The notes beneath the pieces were generated by a model. That model searched no databases. It worked only from the letters and a program-made list of their open reading frames with translations, and was not told the DNA's origin. From Amoeboaphelidium occidentale (lineage: Eukaryota), in contig JALGPX010000002.1 of NCBI GenBank assembly GCA_023515795.1, positions 174,449-194,448 of the forward strand: a stretch of 20,000 bases of DNA, in the 5' to 3' direction. Below are positions 386 to 20,000 of the stretch, one piece after another. Position 1 is the first letter of the stretch; every line of letters begins with the position of its first letter. The position numbers were made by a program, and so were the translations under genes.

Positions 386-2340
386 TCATTTAGATTTACA
401 AGTAATATCTTTGCATAATTCAATCAATAAATTCCATAATTCTGCTTCTTTCAAGTAATATCCTGTCCAGCAGGAGAGAATTTCATTCAGTAGTCTGAAG
501 TGCATGATGCCTTTTGACGAGCTGCGTTTCAGAATGATATCTTTACGAACGTGCCTTGCTAAATATTCATCGCATTCTTTCAACGGTACAGCATGAACAT
601 CATTCTTGTAGAGTATGTTAATCCATCCTTCGTTACTGGATTCTGAAGACCATGAAGGCAGTGGAGTAGGATGAGAAGCACCAAACCAAGGCAAAGGATT
701 TGCAATGCTCAAGAAATATTTCAGCTTCAAACCAGAACCTTTCCCAAAGATCTCTGCAGCAGTGGGAATATTCAACTCGTCTTGTAACTTTCCAAGAGCA
801 AGTGCCGATACAAGTGCTCCTGTTGTGTATGCAATTATCATTACTATTGCGCTTGTATTCCGATATTCATTAGATAAGGAATTCAAAACCTTTTGGAATC
901 CATCATGTATCTTAGTTCGAACATAATGCTCCGCCCAATAAGATAATGCTATAGGAAATCTGCATAGAATTTGATGTCGACCATAGGAATAGATGGAACT
1001 TACAGGATCTAATCCTTTCGTGCGAATCTCATTATCCTTCGACATCAATAAATCATATCGAAGAAGGTGTAGATCAAAAGTAATGTTCTTTTTTGAAGCC
1101 TTCGCTAGCTGTTCCATACTACTACTCAAACCAATTTTTACTTGCTCGATTTCGGAATCGATTTGAGAAGCAGTAGACATTCCATGCACATACACAAAGA
1201 CAAAACGTTGTTCTTTTGCGGCACTATCTGAGATGATCGTTCTGGTATAAACTTTTTCAATCGAAACTGCTTCCTCATCTTTATCCCAAGGTGAAACAGG
1301 CGATCGAAGCATAGGGACTTTTTCATTGAAGTCCATGTTTTCCTTTATCTCAGAGGCCATAGTTTTGTACACATCATCATCGTAGAAATACATAAAATGA
1401 CTAAACGGTGTTATTCGCCCTATGAAAATCAGCAAGAACGTCACCATACTTTTGAATAGCCCAAACAGCACTTGAATAACCGAAAACACACTCACAGACT
1501 TCAGCTTCTTGGTATATTGCGTGATCTCGTTCATATCTGGCATGAATCCAAACTCAACATCTTTCACATGAGCAACTTCCTCACCTTGAACGCTAATACC
1601 ACTCGAGAGAATATCAGAAGTGTAATGAATATTAGTCCAAGGTATCTGAACTTTCCTATGAAATGGCCTAATAGGATGATGCCAATTGACAGCACAACCA
1701 AGGGTGATCAACAGCTTGAACTGTTGCAACAACAAACGCCCTTCCAAAGTGAAACCATCTTGACACTCTGATTGCAAATAATTAGTTAAAAATTCCACAC
1801 CCAGCGTAGCACCCATGCTAAAACCAACCAAAACAAAAGAAATATCATCATCATCGCTACTTTGAGAAGAGTCTTGCATCATTTCCTGTCCAAGTTCGTT
1901 CACAGTTTCAATAACATGATGAAACATATCCTGNNNNNNNNNNNNNNNNNNNNCAAAACAAAAGAAATATCATCATCATCGGTACTTTGAGAAGAGTCTT
2001 GCATCATTTCCTGTCCAAGTTCGTTCACAGTTTCAATAACATGATGAAACATATCCTGTCGAACGCTCTCCGAACCCCAAAACGAAAGGCCCATATTCAG
2101 AACCCTTAAAGGAAGCATTCTAAGGATTGTTTTCCAGTCTAGCCAACTGTACTTGAGTCTTTTACACATTTTTAACTGACGGTCCTCATGCAAGCGAGCA
2201 TAATTAACATACTTCACAACAACCTTCAGGTCTGAGCCTTCAAACTCTTTTCTTATTTGCTTCTCAAAGTGCTTATTAACAATATCAACCTGATCAGCAA
2301 AGCTTAGTCCGTGCAAGAACAAAACACCAATCTGTTTCAT
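386..2340 (-). CDS. Protein with two tandem alpha/beta-hydrolase-like domains; one gene split by an assembly gap
   Basis: ATG at 2340 (MKQIGVLFLHGL). ORFs 1900-2352 and 386-1927 join once the 105-bp duplicate around the N gap is collapsed. Domain 1: LHG, GFSMG, WTNIHYTSD, SHFMYF. Domain 2: VHG, AYTTG, NPLPWF, WINILYKND, WTGYY. Confidence 0.7.
1829..2058. repeat. 105-bp duplicate across a 20-N gap (1829-1933 and 1954-2058); contig-overlap artefact
   Basis: Copies are identical except C1857/G1982 and abut Ns at 1934-1953. Confidence 0.9.
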
Positions 2341-2385
2341 CTCGAAGAGCAAGAAAACATTCGAACTGACAGAGGCATTTTATTT

Positions 2386-2511
2386 AAGCGTACAAGACGC
2401 AGCAAAATATCGCGTATAAAGACGGAAGTACCTCATTGCGCTTTAAGCAAGCAGTGGACCCAGCATCTCTGTGGGGCCAAGACCTTCTGCTAAATCATTT
2501 GGAGCACCAAA
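2386..2511. repeat. Direct repeat copy 1 (126 bp; copy 2 at 4723-4848)
   Basis: AAGCGTACAAGACGC...GGAGCACCAAA; one mismatch (C2487/T4824). Similarity extends about 12 bp further left with an indel. Confidence 0.95.
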
Positions 2512-2712
2512 AATAATACCTCAATCCAGACCTCTAACTTGCCGATCAAGTAGAAATACATCAATATCCGCAAATCAAAAACCCATAGGACACTGGACGG
2601 GGTATATCAGCAAAAAGTTTGATTTGGATTCCGTGGAAATGAAACGAATCGTATTGCACATAAACGCCCAATCAAGTGGACTCTTGTGAAACGGTGCCTT
2701 TGATTTTATTCG

Positions 2713-4509
2713 ATGAATCAACGGCTACCGAAAGAAGGGTTATTGGAATTCTTGCGCAAATTGAAACCAGAACCATCTGATCTAATTGAAGAATTGAACG
2801 CTGATTATGAGTTTACCGTTGGTAAGTGGATAGAGCGCTCAGAAGAAGGCTGGTTGCGACGCTATCCAAACTACGGAGACGACATCTACAATCACATCAA
2901 GGCAAAAATAGGACGACAAGCAGGCTCCGTTCCACCTGATAGTATCGCTCTGGCTGCTGGTATACCACATAACGGATATCTCTTGAGAACTGCTGTTTCT
3001 GCATTAGATCCCGATACAAATGAAGGTGTCCCTGGGACATTCAATACACAAAGAAAGGAACTAGTTGATAGTATTTTACATCTTATGGAACGTAAAGGAT
3101 TGTTCTACATCAGGGCGCCTCCATTCTGCGGGAAAACGGGCCTTTGTCAATTGTTATGCATGCGACTACTCGAAGCCGAGCCTGGTGCCGCTGTTTTACA
3201 TATTAGATGTAATGAATTGGATGAAGGTGAAAGCTTTCGCGAATTTTTCAAAAGAAAGTACAAATGCGCGTGGGAGGATTTTGTGGAACAACCATTCAAA
3301 AAGTATTTGTTGTTGGATGAAGGGCAGTGCACATATGCTGATATCTGGCTGTGGAAAACGCTGTGCAAGAATCAGTTATCACGGATTGAAAAAGGCCTGC
3401 ACTTACTAGTAGCGTCCGCCTATGGTAGCTTTGACTCACTCAGGGCACGAAGGCGTTCCGGAACCCCAATACAAATTCCTGCCCAGAACATGTTTGAGTT
3501 AAAAGATCTTATTTTAAAGAGAACAGAGTTTAATGAGATGGTTTCTGGGAGTCGTTTTGAACAACATTCTGATATAATTTGGCAAGCTTGTGGTGCTCAT
3601 ATAGGTGTAGCTTCAAGAATCTTAATCACGCTTAATCACAACCGCCGGCCTAATGAACAATTTACTCCTAATTACATTGCTAACTGGTTATACTCTGATA
3701 GTATGATCCGCTCGTTGCCTGCACAAAGAGGTTTTATCGATATGCCAGCAGTCGAAACTATCAAAACGATTTATGAGATTTCTGATGCGGCATACTCGCG
3801 AATGCTTAATGTTTTACGAGAGGTAGCTGAAGGCAAAGACGTCCCTACTAAGGATCCTGATCGGTCGCCTGGAAGCAAAGAAGCCGTGACCATTTTGCTG
3901 AAGCATGGGTTTCTATTCGACACATCGGAAGGATTTCTGACATTCGCTTCCAATGCGCACTTGAATTTCTGGTTGGCTTCCTTTCGCACTGATAGCAGCA
4001 TTTGGTTCTTTGATTCTGGTGACATCGTATCATTTGTAGTCGAATCCGTTTCCCGTATGAGCAGGAAGCTATTATCTGACGTTGTTAAAGAAAATCATGG
4101 TCGTAGTCGTGAGAGACAAATCCATGCTGTTTACTATAATGCGGTAACTTCTTTAGTTCCCAAGAAGCACCGAGTGGTTACCGAATGGCAAACTACCGAC
4201 CGTGATGGTTATGTTGACATAGTGATAAGGATCAGCGACTCCGATTTATGGTTCCTGGAGTTGTTGGTTGATGGAGAGCGAGCCCAGCAGCACAATGACC
4301 GCTTTGAATCTTATGGTAATTATTCAAAAGATGTCCAGGCTTACGGTGGAAAGTATGCTCTGATTGATTTTCGCTTAACTACCCGTATTAAAAAAAGAAG
4401 GACGGATTTCGTTTATGTTACGTTTTCAGAGAATTACAAGAATGCGACAATACAGTATGGCACATCTGAATCTAACTCTTCCACCATTACAAGAGAATTG
4501 AATGAATAG
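2713..4509 (+). CDS. Crinkler/RHS-like (CR) protein: short helical header + P-loop NTPase + PD-(D/E)XK restriction-endonuclease-like domain, 598 aa, intronless
   Basis: Walker A APPFCGKT, Walker B LLLDEGQ, ASAYGS...GTP; C-terminal ERQIH...GYVDIVI...WFLELLVDG...H..RF...YALIDFR, typical of fungal CR-NTPase+REase proteins. Confidence 0.8.
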   Translation: MNQRLPKEGLLEFLRKLKPEPSDLIEELNADYEFTVGKWIERSEEGWLRRYPNYGDDIYNHIKAKIGRQAGSVPPDSIALAAGIPHNGYLLRTAVSALDPDTNEGVPGTFNTQRKELVDSILHLMERKGLFYIRAPPFCGKTGLCQLLCMRLLEAEPGAAVLHIRCNELDEGESFREFFKRKYKCAWEDFVEQPFKKYLLLDEGQCTYADIWLWKTLCKNQLSRIEKGLHLLVASAYGSFDSLRARRRSGTPIQIPAQNMFELKDLILKRTEFNEMVSGSRFEQHSDIIWQACGAHIGVASRILITLNHNRRPNEQFTPNYIANWLYSDSMIRSLPAQRGFIDMPAVETIKTIYEISDAAYSRMLNVLREVAEGKDVPTKDPDRSPGSKEAVTILLKHGFLFDTSEGFLTFASNAHLNFWLASFRTDSSIWFFDSGDIVSFVVESVSRMSRKLLSDVVKENHGRSRERQIHAVYYNAVTSLVPKKHRVVTEWQTTDRDGYVDIVIRISDSDLWFLELLVDGERAQQHNDRFESYGNYSKDVQAYGGKYALIDFRLTTRIKKRRTDFVYVTFSENYKNATIQYGTSESNSSTITRELNE

Positions 4510-4722
4510 TAATAAAGAAATATCCAAATGCCATAAACGAAAAGAAACTGACCGATCAAAGACTCTCGCAACACTTGCATGAGAGAACTACATAGAGGGC
4601 TACGGTAATAAGATCTTAAGCTCTATCTGACTACATTTTTTTGAAGTATCAGATGGTAAAGGTTGAATGGCAACTTGGGTGACCGGCGAATCAACGGAGA
4701 ACACCAACAAGGGCATTTATTG

Positions 4723-4848
4723 AAGCGTACAAGACGCAGCAAAATATCGCGTATAAAGACGGAAGTACCTCATTGCGCTTTAAGCAAGCAGTGGACCCAG
4801 CATCTCTGTGGGGCCAAGACCTTTTGCTAAATCATTTGGAGCACCAAA
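4723..4848. repeat. Direct repeat copy 2; the last codons, stop and 3' UTR of the 4780-5568 gene
   Basis: Matches 2386-2511; on the minus strand it encodes FGAPNDLAKGLGPTEMLGPLLA* plus 3' UTR. Confidence 0.95.
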
Positions 4849-5568
4849 CATTTCTTTCAAACTTTTCACACTGAAGTAACTCACGCTCTTGTCTTCTTTC
4901 CGAGGATCATTTGGTGTTTTAACAATATCAAATAATACACCATAACGATTAGAAGTAGAACTGTTGTACCAGTCAGCACGTATTGTGTCCTTCTTTATGA
5001 TCACCACATCCCCGCGATTGTAAGTAACTTTCTCAAGCTTCTTAGTGCTCTTGTTGAACACCACCAAAGTACTTTCTGATTCCAGACCACCGAATACTAC
5101 ATAACCTGCCCTTTTTACGCTGTCACTGTGAAGTCTTTCAGCAAGAGTGCCTGGTGCAGACTCTAGATATGTCAGGGTGTGCTCCCAACCTTCTTCTGCT
5201 GGATACAACTCTTTCATTACAGATACCAACTTATCTAACTTGGGGTAAAGACCCTTTCTATAAACGCTTTCTTCAGAAACATTATAGTAACTTCGGCCAT
5301 GTGGAGGTTGAACAACAATGAAATCTTCTTCATATGGAATTGTGTCTCTTAGATTTAACTACCTTTTGTATGTAGACTCGACCATAGTTCTTAATACCTT
5401 CTTAACCACTATGTAATCCTTGTCGTTCTGTTCAAGATCTTCTATCGCAGGTCTTACTATGTGCACCGCTGATCTCGCCTGGCGCTTCCTATCTCTATCG
5501 TACACTCTCAATGCCACAATTTGCTCTGCCGTTTTATTTCTGTAATTTTTTGATACTCTCTTTGACAT
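4780..5568 (-). CDS. DSBH / 2OG-Fe(II) oxygenase-like protein, interrupted by one in-frame TAG (intron or nonsense)
   Basis: ORFs 5359-5577 and 4780-5229 are the same frame, separated only by TAG at 5361-5359. Motifs ESAPG...LHSD and RGDVVIIKKDTIRA resemble the PhyH-like HxD and GD.hhh.GD.hHA motifs; the distal His is replaced by Arg. Confidence 0.5.
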
Positions 5569-6803: not shown

Positions 6804-6912
6804 CCAATAGTGCCCGATGGACTCTTTTAAGAGGACAGAGGGTGTAAAGACATGGACTCGCGTTTTTTTCAGGGGTACGAATGGCGTGATTCTTTTGGTT
6901 CATTTGCTGATG

Positions 6913-7476
6913 GGCGTTCAACTTTTAGGTTTCGAATAGATTTCATATTTTCATATACAAAGCGTATCTGTTGCATCCTTAGGTAGATCTATTTGTTTCT
7001 TATACTTTCCATTCTTAACTATCTTCTTTCATCTTGCCGTTTCAAGTAGCGCGGCGTGAAGGGCGCAGAAGAACCTAGGCAAATTTACCAGAGCAGTTGA
7101 TTTTTTACATTTAAAAGTGACTGCTGATATCAAATCGTCCGTGTTCTGTAAACAGTGATCATCTATCTCCGGTTTTCGCTTTCTACNTGATTTTGTGATT
7201 GGCGTTCAACTTTTAGGTTTCGAATAGATTTCATATTTTCATATACAAAGTGTATCTGTTGCATCCTTAGGTAGATCTATTTGTTTCTTATACTTTCCAT
7301 TCTTAACTATCTTCTTTCATCTTGCCGTTTCAAGTAGCGCGGCGTGAAGGACGCAGAAGAAAACAAAGCAAAACTTATCAGCACTGCTGATTTTTTACAT
7401 TTAAAAGTGACTGCTGATATCAAATCGTCCGTGTTCTGTAAACAGTGATCATCTATCTCCGGTTTTCGCTTTCTAC
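6913..7476. repeat. About 275-bp near-duplicate across a single N (6913-7186 and 7201-7476); probably two haplotypes
   Basis: Near-identical copies with one divergent patch (about 7062-7097 vs 7350-7387) and N at 7187. Confidence 0.85.
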
Positions 7477-8738
7477 AGTTTGGTTGCGGTTGATTAAACA
7501 ATCGCTAAGAGCGTTGTTTCAGCTGTGTGAATGCTTAGCAATCTTGGCTCAATTAGCTGTCTGTCTATGCAGTATTGTAGAACAAAAACGATGATCTAAG
7601 AGATTCAAATGTAATGCAAGCTTGTGTGCGCGACATAGAGCTTCATGCAACAATTGCCACTGTAAATTAAAGGCTGACTGTGGCTCATGTATTTACAATT
7701 TCGTGCCAGTGCTACTTAGTATGCTGGTCTCCCTTGATATGATGATGTATGCCCTTTCCTGCTGTAATTGGTTGGATGGCTAAAGTGCTCTGCGATCATC
7801 TCGTGGCGATACCATCACTGAAACAACCGAAAATTCTATGATGACACCCAATGTTATTTCATTAAACAAGCAGGAAAAATGATCATGGAAAGAAGAATAA
7901 AATAATACATGTCTATTGAACGCCCAGAGATTTCATCCAAGGTTTTTCGTGCTGAAACAATTGAGCGTATTGTACAATATTCCATCATCGAACAAAGAAA
8001 CACCTGATAGAAAACGATCTTTATTTGCTCTCCCCAATTATTCAACCCTCGGTGGAATTGTAATACGAGGTCAACCTTTACCTGAATCTCCAGTTATCAT
8101 CAGTTAACTCTGATACGCTTGAATGGATGATGATAGCTCTGTAAAATCCAATAAAAATATGCTTTAGCAGCTACTGCAAGTGTGATCATAGTGAAGAATC
8201 AATTAGTAGTAGTAAAGCAGGCGTGTCTGAAGCGTTAAATTGAAATCCTTTCAAAGGTTAATGTTTACAGGGCCGCTGGCCCTGTCTTTCTACAACTAAT
8301 TTAACAAAACTTCTTATCTGCGAGAACTTTCGTGGTATACAGTAAATCTTGGGGTCAATATAACTCCACGCATTATCGCTCTCTTTTTGTTGCTAGAAGA
8401 GTATCGCTGCGCTCAGCTTTATTCATAAATACAACAGATGCCTGATACTCTCGGATGAACTTATAAAGTGTTGGAATGTCCACAGAAAGCCTTGCTTTGT
8501 GCGACATCTTTGCCTTATTTCAATGCAGATTCGTCACCTCATTGCAACTCTAGTAATCACAATATATCTCCTTATGATTTCACAAATAAAAACGTCCATC
8601 GGACTTCGTGTAGCAATGAAGAGCGCATTCGATGCGTGCTGAAGCGTCTACCGCTAGTATAAATCGCCAACCGAAATCACGATGATCGGCTCAACAAATT
8701 TTTTCTATTCAAACGAAAGTTTAACACACAAAAAGAAA

Positions 8739-9705
8739 ATGGTACGCTTTAATGGACCATCTGAGATTCTAATACGTTCTCTGTAGCCTGGATATTTGCC
8801 TAAAGTTTACAGCAGAAAGAAGAGAGTACGTGCTTTGCTTTAGAGGCCCTGATCGTGTTGCTAATGATGAGCCTTTTATTTCTGACACCTCTTGTTTGAG
8901 TACTGTCGTACAATGAACTTGGCATACCCGGCCTTATGGGGTCTGAGCGCAACACGGCCTCTTTTGTCTGAGGAACTTGATCTAACTTTTGTAGTTTGTC
9001 GCTGATGGTGTCTTCTACGCTGAAGTTAATGAATTCTTCACTCGTGAATTGGCTGAAGACGGTTATGCCGGTGTTGAAGTCAGAGTTACTCCTTCAAGAA
9101 CTGAAATTGTTATCCGTGCTACACGTACTCAGCGTGTTTTGGGTGAAAAGGGTCGTCGTATCCGTGAATTGACCTCTTTGATCCAAAAGAGATTTGGTTT
9201 CGCTGAAGGACAGGTTGAATTATTCGCTGACAGAGTTCTTAACCGTGGTTTGTGTGCTATGGCTCAGGCTGAATCCCTTCGTTACAAATTGTTGGGTGGT
9301 TTGGCTGTTCGTCGTGCTTGCTACGGTGTCTTGCGTTATGTCATGGAATCTGGCGCAAAGGGTTGTGAAGTTGTTGTTTCTGGTAAATTGAGAGGTGCTA
9401 GAGCAAAGTCTATGAAGTTTGTTCAGGGTTTCATGATCCACTCTGGTCAGCCAAAGCGTGACTTCATTGACTACGCTGTCAGACACGTCTTGTTGAGACA
9501 AGGTGTTTTGGGTGTTAAGGTCAAGATCATGAAGGATACTGACGAAGAAGGAAAGGTTGGACCTAAGCATCCTTTACCTGACTCTGTTACCATTTTGGAT
9601 CCAAAGCCAGAAGAGAACTACCAGACTGTTATTCAATCTGAAGATCTAAGTGGAAGCGCTCCTGCTCCTGGTGCCCCAGCTGCTGCTGCTCCTGTTCAGG
9701 TTTAA
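8739..9705 (+). CDS. RPS3: 40S ribosomal protein S3 (uS3); exons 8739-8741, 8787-8825, 8995-9705
   Basis: Spliced product [38 protein letters not shown]...[11 protein letters not shown]...[20 protein letters not shown]. Introns are GTACG...CTAAY...TAG (8742-8786, 8826-8994). Strongly biased codon usage. Confidence 0.97.
8854..8956 (+). ncRNA. Intronic box C/D snoRNA, snR48/SNORD60(U60)-like
   Basis: Box C ATGATGA 8864-8870, box D CTGA 8943-8946, terminal stem CGTGTTGC/GCAACACG. Guide TTTCTGACACCTCTTG (8879-8894) before D' TTGA (8896-8899) is complementary to the conserved LSU rRNA segment GAGGTGTCAGAAA. Confidence 0.85.
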
Positions 9706-10907
9706 ATGAAATAAATGGGGGATTTTCACTTAAAATTTTTTTGTGATATGCAAACTTTTTGCAAAATCGAGCTCACGAAGTTCGAGTTAGCTGGTCAGCG
9801 AGTCCGAGTTAGCTCCTCACGCGAGAAAACGTAATAAAAACACTCGGAAAAGTCCTCTTACCTTCTTTTATTGTTTCTATCGGGCTAACGGTCGATTAAA
9901 ATTATGATATTGCACAATGAACAGCCGTTCAAAGTCACGATTTCGCTGATACTACAGCCCTGAGACGTAACTGGTGACTTGGAACTTCAGATATGCTCCG
10001 ATTTATCAGGCTGAGCTGTTTCAAGGTCATATTGGAGAGATCGAATGTTCTGTGTGGAGTACACGCTATTGGAACCCGACTATAATTTGAAACTCTTTGT
10101 GAAGCCTTGTTTCAGTGAATGTTTCAGGCAAGGACATGCAAGGATGAGAGTGTAATTGGTGTAAAGATGAGTTCTGGTGCCTTTTCATACTCTTTATTGA
10201 TAGGTTGTTTGAATGCGTCTCCGATTTACTGCGTAGAATAGGAAATGGATCAGATCTCCCTTAGGCCAATTTCTACAGATTTTGTCCTAAGAGAAATCTT
10301 TCGATTGGATATATAGAGATTGGAAATTAATGAAACCACTACAGCACGCCCACTACAGGAGTAGCAGGCATTAATGCAAGATGATTTCGACGCACTTTGT
10401 TCAGGGTATGCATGACATTTAAGCTTGAAACTCTTTATTGAATAGATTCTCATTGCATTGCATTCCCCAAAGTACTGTCATTAGCCAGTAAATCAATTGA
10501 AACTTAGTCTTTCGTATTCAATGTAGTCAATTGCACTTCTCGAGTCTCATTTAACCCGCTCTCTAACTTCACGCTCTCCGTCTGACAGATGAAACCAAAT
10601 ACCACCGGATCTTGGTGAAGACGAAATGCGACAAGCGAATACGTTCCGATTCGTCCATTTGGATTAAGTTATAGACATTGACAGACTTGGCACGAAGAAT
10701 GTCTACATTTTCTGTTGGACTCTTTCAGTGATCAGTTTAGCGATTAGGTCAAATATCACACCTCAACACCACTTTAAATTGAATCAACAAGGCTAGTGTA
10801 ACCGGCTTTGAAACGCAAATAAATATCATATTCGTACGTTTCTATCATGCGTCTTTCCTGCTATAGCTTGTTTGGGTGATCTTCGGTTTCAGGCTTGTTT
10901 TGTAACA

Positions 10908-13060
10908 ATGCCTAAAAGGAAGAAAAAGAAAGAGCCGGAAATGGCTTTTAGTACCGTAATCCCTTCTCTAGAAAGTGCCACGGTTGTTTCAATTGATGCT
11001 GCTGATGTTGCTCGTGTGAATGATGAAAGTCCCGAGGAGACCTCTACAAAACGTTGCAAGTCATGCGGTGGGACGGACCATCAAAGAGTTTCGTCATAGA
11101 AAAGCGCCAATTACAAACCTCCAGTTAACATGAGAAGCGTAGATGCGTCCTATGAGTATGCGACGTCTACAATCAAGTTTGGCCTGTTAAAGAATGTCAA
11201 GTCTCAAGATTTTCAAATGAAACTGAAACGTTATGTTGAAAGGATGAACTTAATTAGGATTCATGCATCAAACCTATTTAACTTGTACTTGATAGATATG
11301 TTGGCTGCTGGAAAAAGTATTGGGCTTGTTACAACAGGAAAAGATGGAACCCTGTGCAATTTTTTTGTTGCGGCTACTTGACGCACAAAAGACGTGCATT
11401 CAAATAGTCTGGAGGGTGACTTGGAAAGAATAGTTAGCGATTATGCTTCAATGCTGAAACAGGTTGGTTTTGAATTGCCCAATGGAGACGGGTTGTCACA
11501 ATCAATGGTGCATCTGGCTGGAGAATATGAAACAAGATGCAAAACTTTCGTTTCAACTACTTTGCTCGGCAGAATAGCACGCTGGTTGAAGTTTTTGTTA
11601 GAAACGGCATTGCCAGAGGTGTTCGTGAGCATGGCGCGCAGTAAAAGCGCTGCTGGTTATTTGATAGCTATGTTCATATATGAAATGTCTGATGATCCTA
11701 AAAAAACAAGAACCAACGTTGGCCAAGAAAGTGGTTGAATATTGCAAGAATTACAGTTCGATTGGGTTAATGGGTACAGCATTGGAGCAAGTGTATTGCG
11801 TTTTGAAGCAAAAAAACAGCGGTCATAAGGCTGAGTCTAGAAAAGTTAAAGATCAAGACGAATTGGCACCATTACTTGACGCTACTCTACAAAATTTTGG
11901 ACTTCTTTAGAAACCATCAAAATGAAGATGCTGCTTTCCGCGTTGAAACTCAGCAAAGAGGTAGGCGGCTTAGAACATTTACATTGGCGCCCATCTATCA
12001 AAACCGTAACGGATACGTCAACATTGACACTTCTTGCCTATTTGAAGTGTAACAATTCGAAAAAGAAGACCGACGCGACTGGGGTTTTCCTTTTGATAAG
12101 GACTTGATAGAAAAAGGAAAAACAACACGACAGTACTTTATGGAAACAGCAGAAGCTCGCTGGGGAGAAACAGTTGAGATGAAGCCTTGGTTACCCAAAT
12201 GAATGACATTTGGGTATTCGATGGTAACTGATGGCGTTTCGGTTGAATTTCATGTCATGAAAAAAATCCATGATGGGGACAAAGGTCCCGATGATTTTGG
12301 TTTGAATATGGTGGACGACAAGAAATTTTATGTTCCGGTTGATTTAAAAGATACTGTTGTCATTGGCTTAGACCCTGGGAGGAAAGATTTGTTTGATGCG
12401 TATGATGAAAATGGGTCTTTTGGTTGTTCTGGGGGAGAATGGAGACGATTGTCTGGTATTGAATTCTCTGCGAAGAACGAAAGTTTAGGTTGAGTAAACG
12501 GACTGATATCGGTAAAATCAATGCCGATATGCCTTCTGCAAAGGTAGCCACAGTCCTTGAGTTCAAACAATATTTGAGTTACTTTGCAAAAAATTTGAAT
12601 ACTTCAGTGTCTTTTTACGGATCTCACCAGTGGCGTCTTTCTAAGAAGAACGTGTGACATTCATAAACAATGGGCTTATGATCATTTGATCAAGCGTATC
12701 AAAAGAAGGGGAAAGAAAGTCTTTGTTGCTTTTGGTGGTGGCAAGTTTTCTAGTTGTTCACGTGGTCACGCTCCAATTCCGAAGGTTGGCTTTTACAAAG
12801 CGTTGAAACAAAGAAAGATTCCGTGTAGATACGTTTGGGAATACAATACCAGCAAGATTTGCGCTAAATGTTTCACTGTTCTACCAAAAGGAAGGAAATG
12901 GCGTCTGAAGATTTGCTCGAAGATTACTTGTGGCAGATACTGGAACAGAGACGTGAACGCTGCAAAAGACATGAAGTTCGTATTTACTTTCATGAACAAG
13001 AACAACGGAGAAAGACCAGAACAATTCAAACCAAAACCTACAGAAGCAGGAACAAAATAA
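10908..13060 (+). pseudogene. Fanzor1 (eukaryotic TnpB-family RNA-guided RuvC nuclease), inactivated
   Basis: Stitched frames give PKRKKKK (NLS-like), CKSCGGTDH (Zn knuckle), STIKFGL, WHHYLTLLYKIL, FTLAP...YVNIDT, TDGVSV, RuvC-I IGLDPGRKDL (D 12371), AFGGGKF, RuvC-II WEYNTSKICAKC (E 12839), RuvC-III WNRDVNAA (D 12950). In-frame stops at 11097, 11379, 12050, 12200; frameshifts near 11700, 11760-11860, 12478, 12650. Confidence 0.92.
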
Positions 13061-13264
13061 CAACAACAAAACCGAGGTAACAGAGGGACGCAAGTCCGCT
13101 CAAGACCACAATAGGGACCATGTTACGAACGTTACCTCTGATGTTGATGTAGTTACGGTTGCGTGACTACATTGACTGTTCGTATGTTGAGTCAATTAAA
13201 AGTGAAACGGGAGTCAGATTTACGAGTCTCTTTTGCGTTCTTTCTGATTGAAATCAACAATAAT
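13061..13264 (+). ncRNA. Candidate Fanzor omegaRNA scaffold / element right end
   Basis: Lies directly 3' of the Fanzor stop. Hand-derived stems: 13074-13081/13131-13138; 13147-13157/13162-13172; TTGACT/AGTCAA; 13081-13094/13232-13246; terminal TGAT-TGAA-ATCA. Confidence 0.65.
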
Positions 13265-13295
13265 AGAACCGCAGGACGTTTCTTTGCAACGAAAT

Positions 13296-13407
13296 ATGAC
13301 AGAATTTCCCAAACTTCAAAATGACACCATTTTAAGAGTAATTAAAGGCCAAAAGGTTGAGCAGACCCCGGCATGGATTATGCGCCAGGCTGGTCGTTAT
13401 TTACCGG
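13296..13407 (+). CDS. HEM12: Uroporphyrinogen decarboxylase, first exon only (cut off at N 13433)
   Basis: [37 protein letters not shown] carries the URO-D signature [11 protein letters not shown], followed by a GTAATT donor at 13408. Confidence 0.9.
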
Positions 13408-13433
13408 GTAATTTGAAATTGAAGTCAGGAGCN

Positions 13434-13570
13434 AACGTTACCTCTGATGTTGATGTAGTTACGGTTGCGTGACTACGTTGACTGTTCGTATGTTGAGTCA
13501 ATTAAAAGTGAAACGGGAGTCAGATTTACGAGTCTCTTTTGCGTTCTTTTTGATTGAAATCAACAATAAT
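13434..13570 (+). repeat. Second copy of the Fanzor right end / omegaRNA 3' part (copy 1 at 13128-13264)
   Basis: 137 bp with 2 substitutions (A13171/G13477, C13244/T13550). Starts right after the N and has a different 3' flank. Confidence 0.95.
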
Positions 13571-13577
13571 TCTTCCA

Positions 13578-14741
13578 ATGGCTTCAGCAAAGCGCAAATC
13601 GAAATGGGACGCATTCGATGACGACGCGGAAGAGGAAACGCAGAGCTCCAAACTGACAAGAAAGCCAAAGAAGAGCAAGGAACTTAAGTCCGCGGAGAAG
13701 GCATTAAGCATAGGAAGCGTGTTACAAGCACAACAGTTTCCGGTAGAAAACATAACAAAGACCTCTGATTATTCTCATGTTCAAGAGGTATCAACGGAGT
13801 TCGATTACCTTTCGCAACCTACCAAAGGATTATTTATAAGATCATGTTCTGATGTTACGGAAGAATACGATATCGTTTGCTTAATTCAGGAAGGAACCTT
13901 TGGTGCTGTTTACAAGGCAAAACATCGAGAAACTGGTCAAATAATGGCTTTAAAGAAGATCAAGGATGATGCTAATGAACAGAATGGGTTCCCATTGACA
14001 GCTTTACGTGAAATTACTGCATTGCAACGATTGCAGCACCAAAATGTTGTAACCCTGAGTGAAATCTTGTCTGAAACTGAACAGGATTTGGGAACTATTC
14101 GTTTCTATTTGGCTATGGAATATTTTCCTTATGAGTTGAGGCAATGGGTTCGAGAAAAGATGCCAAAGCTCGATGAAACAGCCTCCAAGTTGCTATTTCG
14201 GCAAGTTCTTCAAGGTCTAGAATTCTTACATTCAAACTATTACATTCACAGAGACATCAAACCTACTAATATTCTTGTTACGGAAGAAGGCACGGTTAAA
14301 TTGGCAGATTTTGGATATGTCAAAAACTACGAAGTTCCAATTAAAGACATGACACCATCTGTAACAACACTTTGGTATCGTGCTCCTGAAATACTATTTG
14401 GTAAAACAGATTATACAGAGAAGATTGATATATTTTCTGCTGGCTGTGTGTATGCTGACATACTTCGTGGTGGCATGCCGCTGTTTGAAGGACAGTCTGA
14501 GATTGACCAAATTAGACAAATATTCACTGTACTTGGAACTCCTTCGGAAAGAGTACTCGCTAAGTATCCTAATGGAACCGATTTTAATTTTACAAAGTAT
14601 TCGTGCACTTTGAAGGATCGGTTACAGGTAGATGTGTCTGATGAATGTCTAGAGTTTCTCATGCTACTTTTGGAGCCAGATTACGACACAAGGCTTTCAG
14701 CGAAGGAAGCCCTGATGCGCCCTTACTTGCAGCTTAAATAA
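13578..14741 (+). CDS. Cyclin-dependent kinase, CDK10/CDK11 (PITSLRE)-like
   Basis: EGTFGAVYKA, ALKK, GFPLTALREI, HRDIKPTN, DFG, TLWYRAPEILFG; first ATG at 13578. Confidence 0.88.
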   Translation: MASAKRKSKWDAFDDDAEEETQSSKLTRKPKKSKELKSAEKALSIGSVLQAQQFPVENITKTSDYSHVQEVSTEFDYLSQPTKGLFIRSCSDVTEEYDIVCLIQEGTFGAVYKAKHRETGQIMALKKIKDDANEQNGFPLTALREITALQRLQHQNVVTLSEILSETEQDLGTIRFYLAMEYFPYELRQWVREKMPKLDETASKLLFRQVLQGLEFLHSNYYIHRDIKPTNILVTEEGTVKLADFGYVKNYEVPIKDMTPSVTTLWYRAPEILFGKTDYTEKIDIFSAGCVYADILRGGMPLFEGQSEIDQIRQIFTVLGTPSERVLAKYPNGTDFNFTKYSCTLKDRLQVDVSDECLEFLMLLLEPDYDTRLSAKEALMRPYLQLK

Positions 14742-14813
14742 TAAAACATTTATCCAAAAGAGAGCTCCTGAAACGTTTCTACTAGTTCTTTTTTGCGTGC
14801 TGCGGCAACTGTG

Positions 14814-18215: not shown

Positions 18216-18575
18216 ATCTTGAAATCTAATTGTTTTTGAAGCAACTTGTTTAAACTCTAAAACGTCGTTGCATACATCTCTATTAGATCATTTGGTTGAC
18301 TCTTCAGTTCTGTTTCGAAGTATTCGCTCTCCTTTGAACCCATTTGCTGCAAAGATCGCAAATCGCGGAGAATTTTAAGAGAATAGAATATCATTCTGCG
18401 AAGTAACCAGAAGCTTAATCGTAGAATACAAATAGTTTTGCTCCCCGTGAGATATTCTACACTTCATTCCCAAGCTTTCGGTTGCGCTGTCGCCGATCAG
18501 AGAATGTTTTCGCTTTTTTACGAAAATTGTCATTTAACTCACTCGTCTACTACTACTACAAAATATAATAATTCA

Positions 18576-20000
18576 ATGGGCATTAAAGGGTTTAGTGCTT
18601 TTGCCAAGAAACATCAGCTGTTATCTGAGACCATCAATCTCCAAGAGTTCAATGAATTATATAAGAATCACAGGATCTTTGTGGATCTCTATGGCAGTTT
18701 CTATGATCTTATTCGTTATTATGTATTGGATGACAAGTATGAGGCTCTAGTCACTATTTTCAGCAAAATGTCTAGTGATCTAGACGTAACGTTCGTTATC
18801 GATGGCAGCCGGTCCGCTGAGAAGCATAAAACCCATGCTGCAAGAGATCAGCAACGCTTTCTTAAACTGCACTCATTTCAGGACATTATTCATTCTTTTG
18901 ATCCACAGAATAATGTTTCCAAGTCAAAGTGGCGCTCAATGGAAAAGTTCAGATATTCTTGCTTTAGAATTACAGAGCATCACACGAAACAACTATTTCG
19001 CGCACTTGAATCGGCTAATTTGCCAGTAATTCTCGCAAAGTTTGAAGCGGATGTTGAGATCGGGCGTCTAGTTGCGAAATTAAAATCGAATGAGTTATCA
19101 AATACAATAGTTGTTTCTTCGGATTCCGATCTGGTATTTTATGGATGCTCTGTTGTTGCAAAGCCTTTTTTCATGAACAAGTTTGATTGGAAATCTTTGC
19201 GTTTTACTCTCTTTCGAAAAACAATTGCACTTAAAAAGATTGGAATAACCGAAGAGTGTTGGAACGCTTTGGCAGTTGTTGCGGGGAACGATTACGTTTC
19301 CAATTTGAGGGGATTCGGCATTGCGAGATGTTTGAAGGAATTTCAAAAAATTAATGAAAATGGCGCTTGCACTGCTGAAGAAATGGTGGAAACATTTGAG
19401 CAATCGCACGATAAAAAAAGGTCATTTTCAGATTGCCAGTGCAGTGTTTTTGAATTATCAAGAGACAAGTTGTGCGGTCTGTGTTGAAAGTCTTCAAGAG
19501 CAAATGTTTAAAGATTGCTGTAGTCAACTTCAGCTTTTAAAAGAAAAGTACAGAGCTGCCCGCGCCGCAAAGCGTCAAACCACTCAAGGAAGGTCTTTGC
19601 AAGAGCTGAAACATTTAAAATTTCCTTCTCGAAAGAATGCGTTTAGCCCCGTGGTTCATACTCAACTCGGGCGTTATAAAGTGAAAAAGATCGCAAAAAT
19701 TAAATTAACACAATCTGATGTGACTTCGGCTGAAACAATTGCTGGCCCTGTTTCTGTACAATCTTCAACAAGAAAGAAATCTACCAGGAGACAAGGGACG
19801 AAAAAGAAGAAGAAAGCTAGATACTTGAAGTCAGCAAAGCAAACTAGGACCAAGCCTTCTTTAAACCCACATGGTAAACACAAATTGGCTCAAACTACTG
19901 TAGACATGTGCACTCTTAAAAAACAATATCAGATTAAATCATGGCAGCTGGGAACTTTGCGAAGCCAAATCAAGAAGTCTTCCTTGGATACTGAAATTCA
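18576..20000 (+). CDS. PIN (XPG/FEN1-like) nuclease domain protein with long basic extension; frameshift at A7 19413-19419; 3'-truncated by window; candidate PIN-Fanzor fusion
   Basis: MGIKGF, IFVDLYGSFY, FVIDG...EKHKTH..R, FEADVEIG, VSSDSDL, GNDYVSNLRGFG (H3TH). Removing one A gives a frame open to 20000 (KGHFQIASAVFLNYQET...TKKKKKAR...IKSWQLGTLRSQIKKS). Confidence 0.75.

Follow-up and report, generated by a model that had tools for sequence, protein, structure and literature searches.

The window, a 20,000-nt stretch of the Amoeboaphelidium occidentale genome, contains an RPS3 gene, an element carrying a Fanzor1 gene, and an intact gene for a CDK-family kinase, with a short piece of a second locus lying between the last two (Table 1). 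The stop of RPS3 is at 9705, and its start and introns were inferred from the sequence. The kinase reading frame has CDK3, CDK11B, and CDK1 as its best PDB matches. The original spacer between RPS3 and CDK is 44 nt, made up of the 33 nt and 11 nt that now flank the element, and the next spacer, between CDK and a PHO81-like gene, is 72 nt. The piece of the second locus includes exon 1 of HEM12 (uroporphyrinogen decarboxylase), with an ATG at 13296 and the first 38 codons (Pfam URO-D, E = 2.4e-10), followed by an intron that would start at 13408. The names HEM12 and PHO81-like, as well as the intron calls, are our own provisional assignments.

Table 1. Features of the RPS3-CDK locus and of the intruding second-locus piece, in window coordinates
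Feature	Coordinates	Strand	Evidence
RPS3	8739..9705	+	Pfam Ribosomal_S3_C, E = 2.6e-26; KH_2 on 9001-9702; X1 depth 108, single copy
Left 33 nt of RPS3-CDK spacer, T run at insertion point	9706..9738	+	Joints 9738>13567 (X2, X4) and 9738>13568 (X8)
5' module, common to a high-copy repeat family; small hairpins at left end	9739..10598	+	X1 depth; other copies branch off at 10598
Decayed Fanzor1 gene	10908..13060	+	PF07282, E = 7.2e-7; best homolog P0001, E = 1.1e-158
First right-end copy, as at HEM12, with C at 13244 (predicted omega-RNA)	13128..13260	+	Fold -40.5 kcal/mol, z = -3.47; X1 contig 13214-13432
Stray second-locus flank: TAAT, 35-nt leader, HEM12 exon 1	13261..13432	+	URO-D match; X2 and X1 contigs
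Scaffold join, no real adjacency	13433	.	Single N, spanned by no joint or listed record
Second right-end copy, at CDK; genuine terminus of the element from 9739 (predicted omega-RNA)	13434..13566	+	Fold -43.0 kcal/mol, z = -4.55; X1 contig; empty-site joint
Right 11 nt of RPS3-CDK spacer, on the TAAT target side; predicted guide start	13567..13577	+	Present in X2 and X4 empty alleles
CDK-family kinase, intact, 387 aa	13578..14741	+	Pfam kinase, E = 8.7e-61

On its sequence, the gene inside the element is a Fanzor1, as the signature motifs are present and the closest relatives belong to the Fz1 clade. When aligned to the best homolog, P0001 (KAI3659908.1, A. occidentale), the window pieces show LDPGRK, WEYNTSKIC..C, C..CG, and WNRD, among which are the DPG, rearranged-glutamate (Ealt), C4, and NRD motifs. 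DPG, the rearranged glutamate, C4, and a terminal RD are given as Fanzor1 signatures in PMC10711439 and PMC3627910. P0001 is labelled FZ1 in supplement file 3 of PMC10432273 and is among the Fanzor HMM matches of Table S2 in PMC10711439. Its best PDB match is SpuFz1 (8gkh, E = 1.3e-7). The window pieces share 84% identity with P0001 over 192 N-terminal residues and 92% over the C-terminal piece, and five of the six homologs matched are A. occidentale proteins. The window copy is broken by in-frame stops and frameshifts, and the frameshifts at 11700, 11813, 12475, and 12641 are absent from other copies in the metagenome contigs described below. Where a copy is one base shorter at 13038-13040, its frame extends to 13166, into the repeat that follows the gene, as does the C terminus of P0001. 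A reading made earlier from the letters of the window, here called the sequence-only reading, had assigned this repeat to the right end of a Fanzor, which is correct. Whereas the census rows for KAI3659908.1 give proteins, the window copy, though broken, adds the ends of the element, its target, and an empty site.

A database gene model, P0007 (1,479 aa), consists of three tandem Fanzor pieces with the C-terminal domain in the last only and no transposase domain, and represents either tandem copies or assembly stacking like that at 13433. No longer or fused Fanzor forms were found, which is weak evidence. A protein scan of viral and prokaryotic contigs gave one weak, distant match each, at 28% identity, and a motif scan of viral and prokaryotic contigs gave none. 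A metagenome scan with a 21-nt end motif returned five matches, all limited to 21 to 32 nt and all rejected as chance.

The region downstream of the Fanzor1 gene contains a 137-nt direct repeat (13128-13264 and 13434-13570; E = 3.6e-64), which the sequence-only reading had also recognized in two copies. The copies have two differences, A at 13171 versus G at 13477 and C at 13244 versus T at 13550. A single N lies at 13433, and copy 2 begins directly after it; the 5' limit of the repeat is simply the start of the contig after the N and not an element boundary. All three N gaps of the window have near-identical duplicates on both sides, which points to assembly stacking of overlapping contig ends.

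To check the junctions, we compared the window with contigs of public metagenome runs, using X1 to X4 over 10500-14800 and X1, X2, X4, and X8 over 7600-14800; these are five of the ten runs listed, with X5 to X7, X9, and X10 left out. Joints were called at a likeness of 88, in metagenome runs of relatives, which are strains other than that of the window. The best-matching run, X1, contains 83% of the words sampled. Because the window may itself derive from X1, this run tests the assembly and not the biology. A 15,830-nt X1 contig covers 13214-13432 with no differences and continues past 13432 for 15.6 kb into other sequence. A second X1 contig (4,507 nt) covers 13539-14800 with one difference and consists of 32 nt of the repeat, followed by CDK; support for the CDK junction in X1 is this 32-nt overlap, made up of 28 element bases plus TAAT. 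A third (1,184 nt) covers 8629-9812 with no differences and spans the left junction of the element. All three have depths of 105 to 108, which is single-copy. X1, X3, and X4 exit the window at 13432, 13407, and 13431, respectively, into a common other sequence, and an X2 contig likewise goes on. No joint or contig piece spans the N at 13433 among the pieces listed (32 of 169 and 32 of 1,371).

As the end joined to HEM12 and the end joined to CDK are on separate contigs and no listed contig crosses the N, both junctions are real but lie at different loci, and their tandem layout is a product of the assembly. The sequence-only reading had suspected that the N joins two loci through the repeat, and the separate X1 contigs bear this out; it had also allowed that one junction might be chimeric, and both are present in X1 contigs. 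RPS3, element, and CDK is the true long-range order, the scaffold error being the last 306 nt before copy 2, and 13261-13432 is a stray flank from a second locus that intrudes in the RPS3-CDK locus.

In relatives, the RPS3 side is joined directly to the CDK side: position 9738 meets 13567 in X2 and X4 and 13568, with one extra base, in X8. This empty-site joint occurs in three of four runs, from three studies, with shorter sides of 255, 54, and 46 nt in X2, X4, and X8, respectively; none was found in X1, and contigs drop rare variants. The X2 contig with the joint (2,435 nt) has 7 differences from the window on the RPS3 side and 58 on the CDK side, and X2 is therefore a relative with an empty site. 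The differences are uneven along this one contig, with 7 in 1,080 nt at 8660-9738 and 58 in 1,228 nt at 13567-14794, and could stem from tighter constraint on RPS3 or from recombination with a breakpoint at the insertion. The HEM12 site is likewise empty in X2, where a 38,367-nt contig matches the window only at 13261-13432 and has 31,000 nt of other upstream sequence. The earlier claim of at least two insertion sites is correct.

X2 contigs begin to match at 13261 and 13567. As the empty alleles keep TAAT, the element ends at 13260 and 13566, and TAAT is host target; the right boundary is at these positions or one base further, since a T fits both sides. The sequence-only reading was right that the two copies have a common end and placed that end 4 nt too far, within the host bases. 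Its distances of 31 and 7 nt to the HEM12 and CDK start codons are correct from the end of the repeat and become 35 and 11 nt from the true end. The element starts at 9739 and has its right end at 13566, within the RPS3-CDK spacer, and the interior at 9813-13213 may belong to the CDK-locus copy or be a mosaic. At the one fully resolved site there is no target duplication, the joint shares one base, a T, and the insertion point is T-rich (TTT/TAAT, the slash marking the insertion). Right flanks begin with TA in five of five cases, two in the window and three among the 24 of 40 loose ends listed; the latter are found in X2 at 13267, 13568, and 13569, with 13569 also in X4.

The element combines the Fanzor part with a 5' module of much higher copy number. 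Summed X1 depth is 1,777 to 4,714 over 9769-10491, compared with 108 for single-copy sequence, and by these depths tens of copies carry the left end of the element but not this right end. The Fanzor part has an X1 depth of about 250 to 610, or about 3 to 5 copies, depth being a rough guide to copy number. Since X2 and X4 contigs also begin at 10570, within the shared module, the composite of 5' module and Fanzor is probably a family trait. The module was rejected as a transposase gene, with no Pfam match in any of the six frames and no coding-like codon scores, and no homologs were found for the two of six frames searched. The last 13 nt of the element recur in near-identical form, as 12 nt, at 10779-10790, 117 nt before the Fanzor start; this match may be a relic of an earlier end, a binding site, or chance.

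With respect to transposon class, the one fully resolved site has the 5' T, the insertion after a T run, and the lack of target duplication of Helitron2-type elements. The asymmetric inverted repeats of Helitron2 (8 to 15 bp) were not detected in this one decayed copy, for which the best match is 5 nt (542 of 3,000 shuffles; reverse, 2,744 of 3,000). A direct-repeat test of the ends gave nothing significant, Pfam detected no RepHel within the element, and the ends, folded as DNA, have z values of -0.89 (left, where short hairpins are predicted) and -1.28 and -0.73 (right). The element resembles the Helitron2-Fanzor1 elements CRe-1/2/3 of Chlamydomonas, in which the 5' end starts with T and is common to commoner repeats, and in which full-length copies follow a TTTT run with no duplication and have hairpins near their ends (PMC3627910). 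In contrast to CRe-1/2/3, it has no significant asymmetric inverted repeats and no RepHel was found in it, and either T or A follows the cut, depending on the side to which the ambiguous T is assigned. The missing asymmetric repeats lead us to leave the class open despite this likeness. The CMe-1A Fanzor1 family of Cyanidioschyzon merolae, compared by description only, is similarly reported as unclassified and without inverted repeats, its 5' part being common to another repeat family (PMC3627910), but has about 150 old copies as opposed to about 3 to 5 here.

The 133-nt right end is predicted to form a stable RNA structure. For each copy, none of 200 shuffles was as stable, and the interval 13030-13280 has a z value of -2.61. 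The predicted fold is a 15-bp hairpin plus a long terminal stem, closing 1 nt short of the boundary. Both differences between the copies, and a 13226 G>A change in relatives, fall in predicted stems with pairing kept or improved, as read from the structures. No Rfam family was found at gathering level, and a match to IS009, with 23 bits against a threshold of 117, was rejected. We regard the right end as a candidate omega-RNA scaffold on the basis of this modeling. Tested Fanzors take their guide from the flank past the end, and SPu-1/SpuFz1 similarly has a structured 3' noncoding end with the flank as guide (PMC10432273), the counterpart here being a predicted fold. The right end would be transcribed outward to give an omega-RNA with the flank as guide, and each predicted guide would, by analogy, match its own site in the empty state. 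An active Fanzor would then cleave the allele lacking the element, beside a T-rich TAM, and favor re-copying of the element; such guide-driven restoration after loss has been proposed and is not settled (PMC10530073). The sequence-only reading had singled out the guides as the leaders of two housekeeping genes in sense orientation. The flanks are as it described, but they are simply the flank of each site, would be a by-product of using the flank as guide, and need no further explanation.

Taken together, the two right ends are likely to be separate insertions of one Fanzor1 family that an assembly error placed in tandem, with their nearness to ATGs arising from short spacers and from the survival of insertions that spare coding DNA. 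The element beginning at 9739 inserted at TTT/TAAT in the 44-nt RPS3-CDK spacer with no target duplication, presumably mobilized by a rolling-circle (Helitron2-like) enzyme encoded elsewhere, and a second copy of the family sits 35 nt before HEM12. The assembly took the HEM12 exit from the repeat and stopped there, and one N then linked it to the CDK contig. Insertions that spare coding DNA would survive, adding to the nearness to ATGs. The element is real, as are its polymorphic insertions at two sites; the tandem is artefactual, and targeting is unproven.

A genuine scaffold-guide-scaffold-guide array, with two guide RNAs against housekeeping genes, is an extremely improbable source of the repeat, in keeping with the low rank that it had in the sequence-only reading. 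It would explain the layout of the window, but the N sits exactly at the start of copy 2, the scaffold-guide units are on different contigs with no listed record over the N, the HEM12 contig of X1 goes 15.6 kb elsewhere, loose ends of X3 and X4 match it, an X2 contig also carries on, and relatives join RPS3 directly to CDK. Concerning class only, the element could instead be a decayed, TA-targeting cut-and-paste transposon of Tc1/mariner type, like SPu-1 of Spizellomyces punctatus, with the left TA and the inverted repeats mutated. The TA at the start of all five right flanks (three of them from 24 of 40 loose ends listed) and the private changes of the window copy near its left end, at 9775 and 9782, are consistent with this, and SPu-1 has putative TA duplications along with 33-bp inverted repeats (PMC3627910), neither of which is detectable here. 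We consider such an origin improbable, however, as the left flank is TT and TA occurs on the right side only, terminal inverted similarity in this one decayed copy does not exceed chance (matched by 1,611 of 3,000 shuffles), and the tens of copies without this right end have the same left end.

From the position of the insertions relative to genes, the sequence-only reading drew a preference for inserting near start codons. Both insertions face a host ATG in sense orientation, yet these are two sites, and because the spacer is 44 nt, any insertion in it falls within 44 nt of the CDK ATG. The chance of two sense sites within 35 nt of an ATG is 0.065 to 0.15 with short spacers (44 and 72 nt) and 0.01 to 0.03 (0.025 and 0.01) if spacers of 150 to 400 nt dominate, under a crude null that draws on two measured spacers. 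The sequence TTTTA occurs 3 times in 198 nt of three spacers versus 40 times in 11,860 nt of ORFs (15.2 versus 3.4 per kb), making it about 4.5 times denser in spacers. Comparing further ends with the nearest ATG, as had been suggested, is uninformative: two of the three further flanks of relatives have an ATG within 35 nt, and so do 49% of all 35-nt windows. The data neither show nor exclude a bias, start-codon targeting remains unproven, and the nearness to start codons probably follows from how little DNA separates the genes, not from targeting.

It is plausible, as the sequence-only reading also proposed, that the element end now supplies the promoter or 5' leader of CDK, of which 11 nt of native upstream DNA is left and the frame is intact. 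With 11 nt remaining, the CDK transcript would start in or just after the element end, and a start within the end would make sense-oriented insertions the tolerated ones. Among 14 listed differences between the CDK of the window and that of relatives, 9 are synonymous and 5 nonsynonymous (P = 7e-4 against neutrality); they are a subset of the 58 X2 differences over 13567-14794, with 14748 excluded as past the stop, and could reflect selection from before the insertion. We judge it unlikely that the family is truly biased to 5' leaders in sense orientation, whether through open-promoter targeting or through an outward-transcribed end that replaces the promoter, the assembly error still holding in either case. 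The sense orientation of both sites, 11 and 35 nt from the ATG, fits such a bias, as do the chance values of 0.01 to 0.025 with longer spacers and an insertion that looks fixed in X1 next to an intact, largely synonymously varying CDK ORF. Against it, the pattern rests on n = 2 and was noticed through the pattern itself, proximity at CDK is forced by the spacer, the ATGs of the other flanks are candidate starts with a chance of 49% each, an unrelated repeat also ends 81 nt before RPS3 in sense, and the CDK differences do not place selection after the insertion. A broader version, which we hold to be rather doubtful, follows from the need to transcribe the guide RNA through the end into the flank: Fanzor right ends would be portable outward promoters that land in the leaders of housekeeping genes of compact genomes, take over the transcription start, and become fixed, such that host mRNAs would begin with the omega-RNA scaffold and guide RNA and mRNA would be one transcript, as a general rule across unrelated compact eukaryotes. 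Takeover of leaders, if true, would explain the persistence of RNA-guided transposons in gene-dense genomes.

On the preferred reading, of separate insertions placed in tandem by the assembly, the locus provides exact ends, proof by empty sites, a candidate omega-RNA, and a target motif from which a T-rich TAM is predicted, all for a Fanzor1 family otherwise recorded only through protein entries in censuses. It also flags a local misassembly that mimics a guide array. In the literature, we found no main text pairing Fanzor with Amoeboaphelidium or an aphelid, although two census supplements do list these Amoeboaphelidium proteins; no Amoeboaphelidium Fanzor proteins were found in the supplements of PMC10530073. 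Going by the titles listed, we found no report of a Fanzor start-codon preference.

Several further features of the window were noted. The N gap at 1934-1953 splits a hydrolase-like gene and lies between 105-nt duplicates (99%; 1829-2058), and that at 7187 lies between 287-nt duplicates (94%; 6902-7476); both pairs are probably stacked contig ends or haplotypes. A high-copy repeat at 7800-8657 (X1 summed depth of 910 to 2,383 over 7841-8804), unrelated to the Fanzor element, terminates in sense orientation 81 nt upstream of where RPS3 is inferred to start. Its end is a short hairpin and CTAG, then T, and many different flanks follow after 8658 in X1, X2, and X4. This arrangement reads as the canonical 3' end of a Helitron1, in features that go beyond the CTRR rule of PMC3627910. 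An ORF at 2713-4509 (598 aa) has no Pfam match and, by eye, a P-loop-like motif and a nuclease-like C terminus; 141-nt direct repeats (97%) bracket it at 2374-4851 with no N nearby, and the interval is possibly a mobile unit. Finally, an XPG-like ORF at 18504-19998 (Pfam XPG_I, E = 4e-7) overlaps a second frame, which continues past the window edge, and by eye it resembles the N terminus of a 1,219-aa Amoeboaphelidium protein among the TnpB/Fanzor-like census entries; another nuclease-bearing element may begin here.
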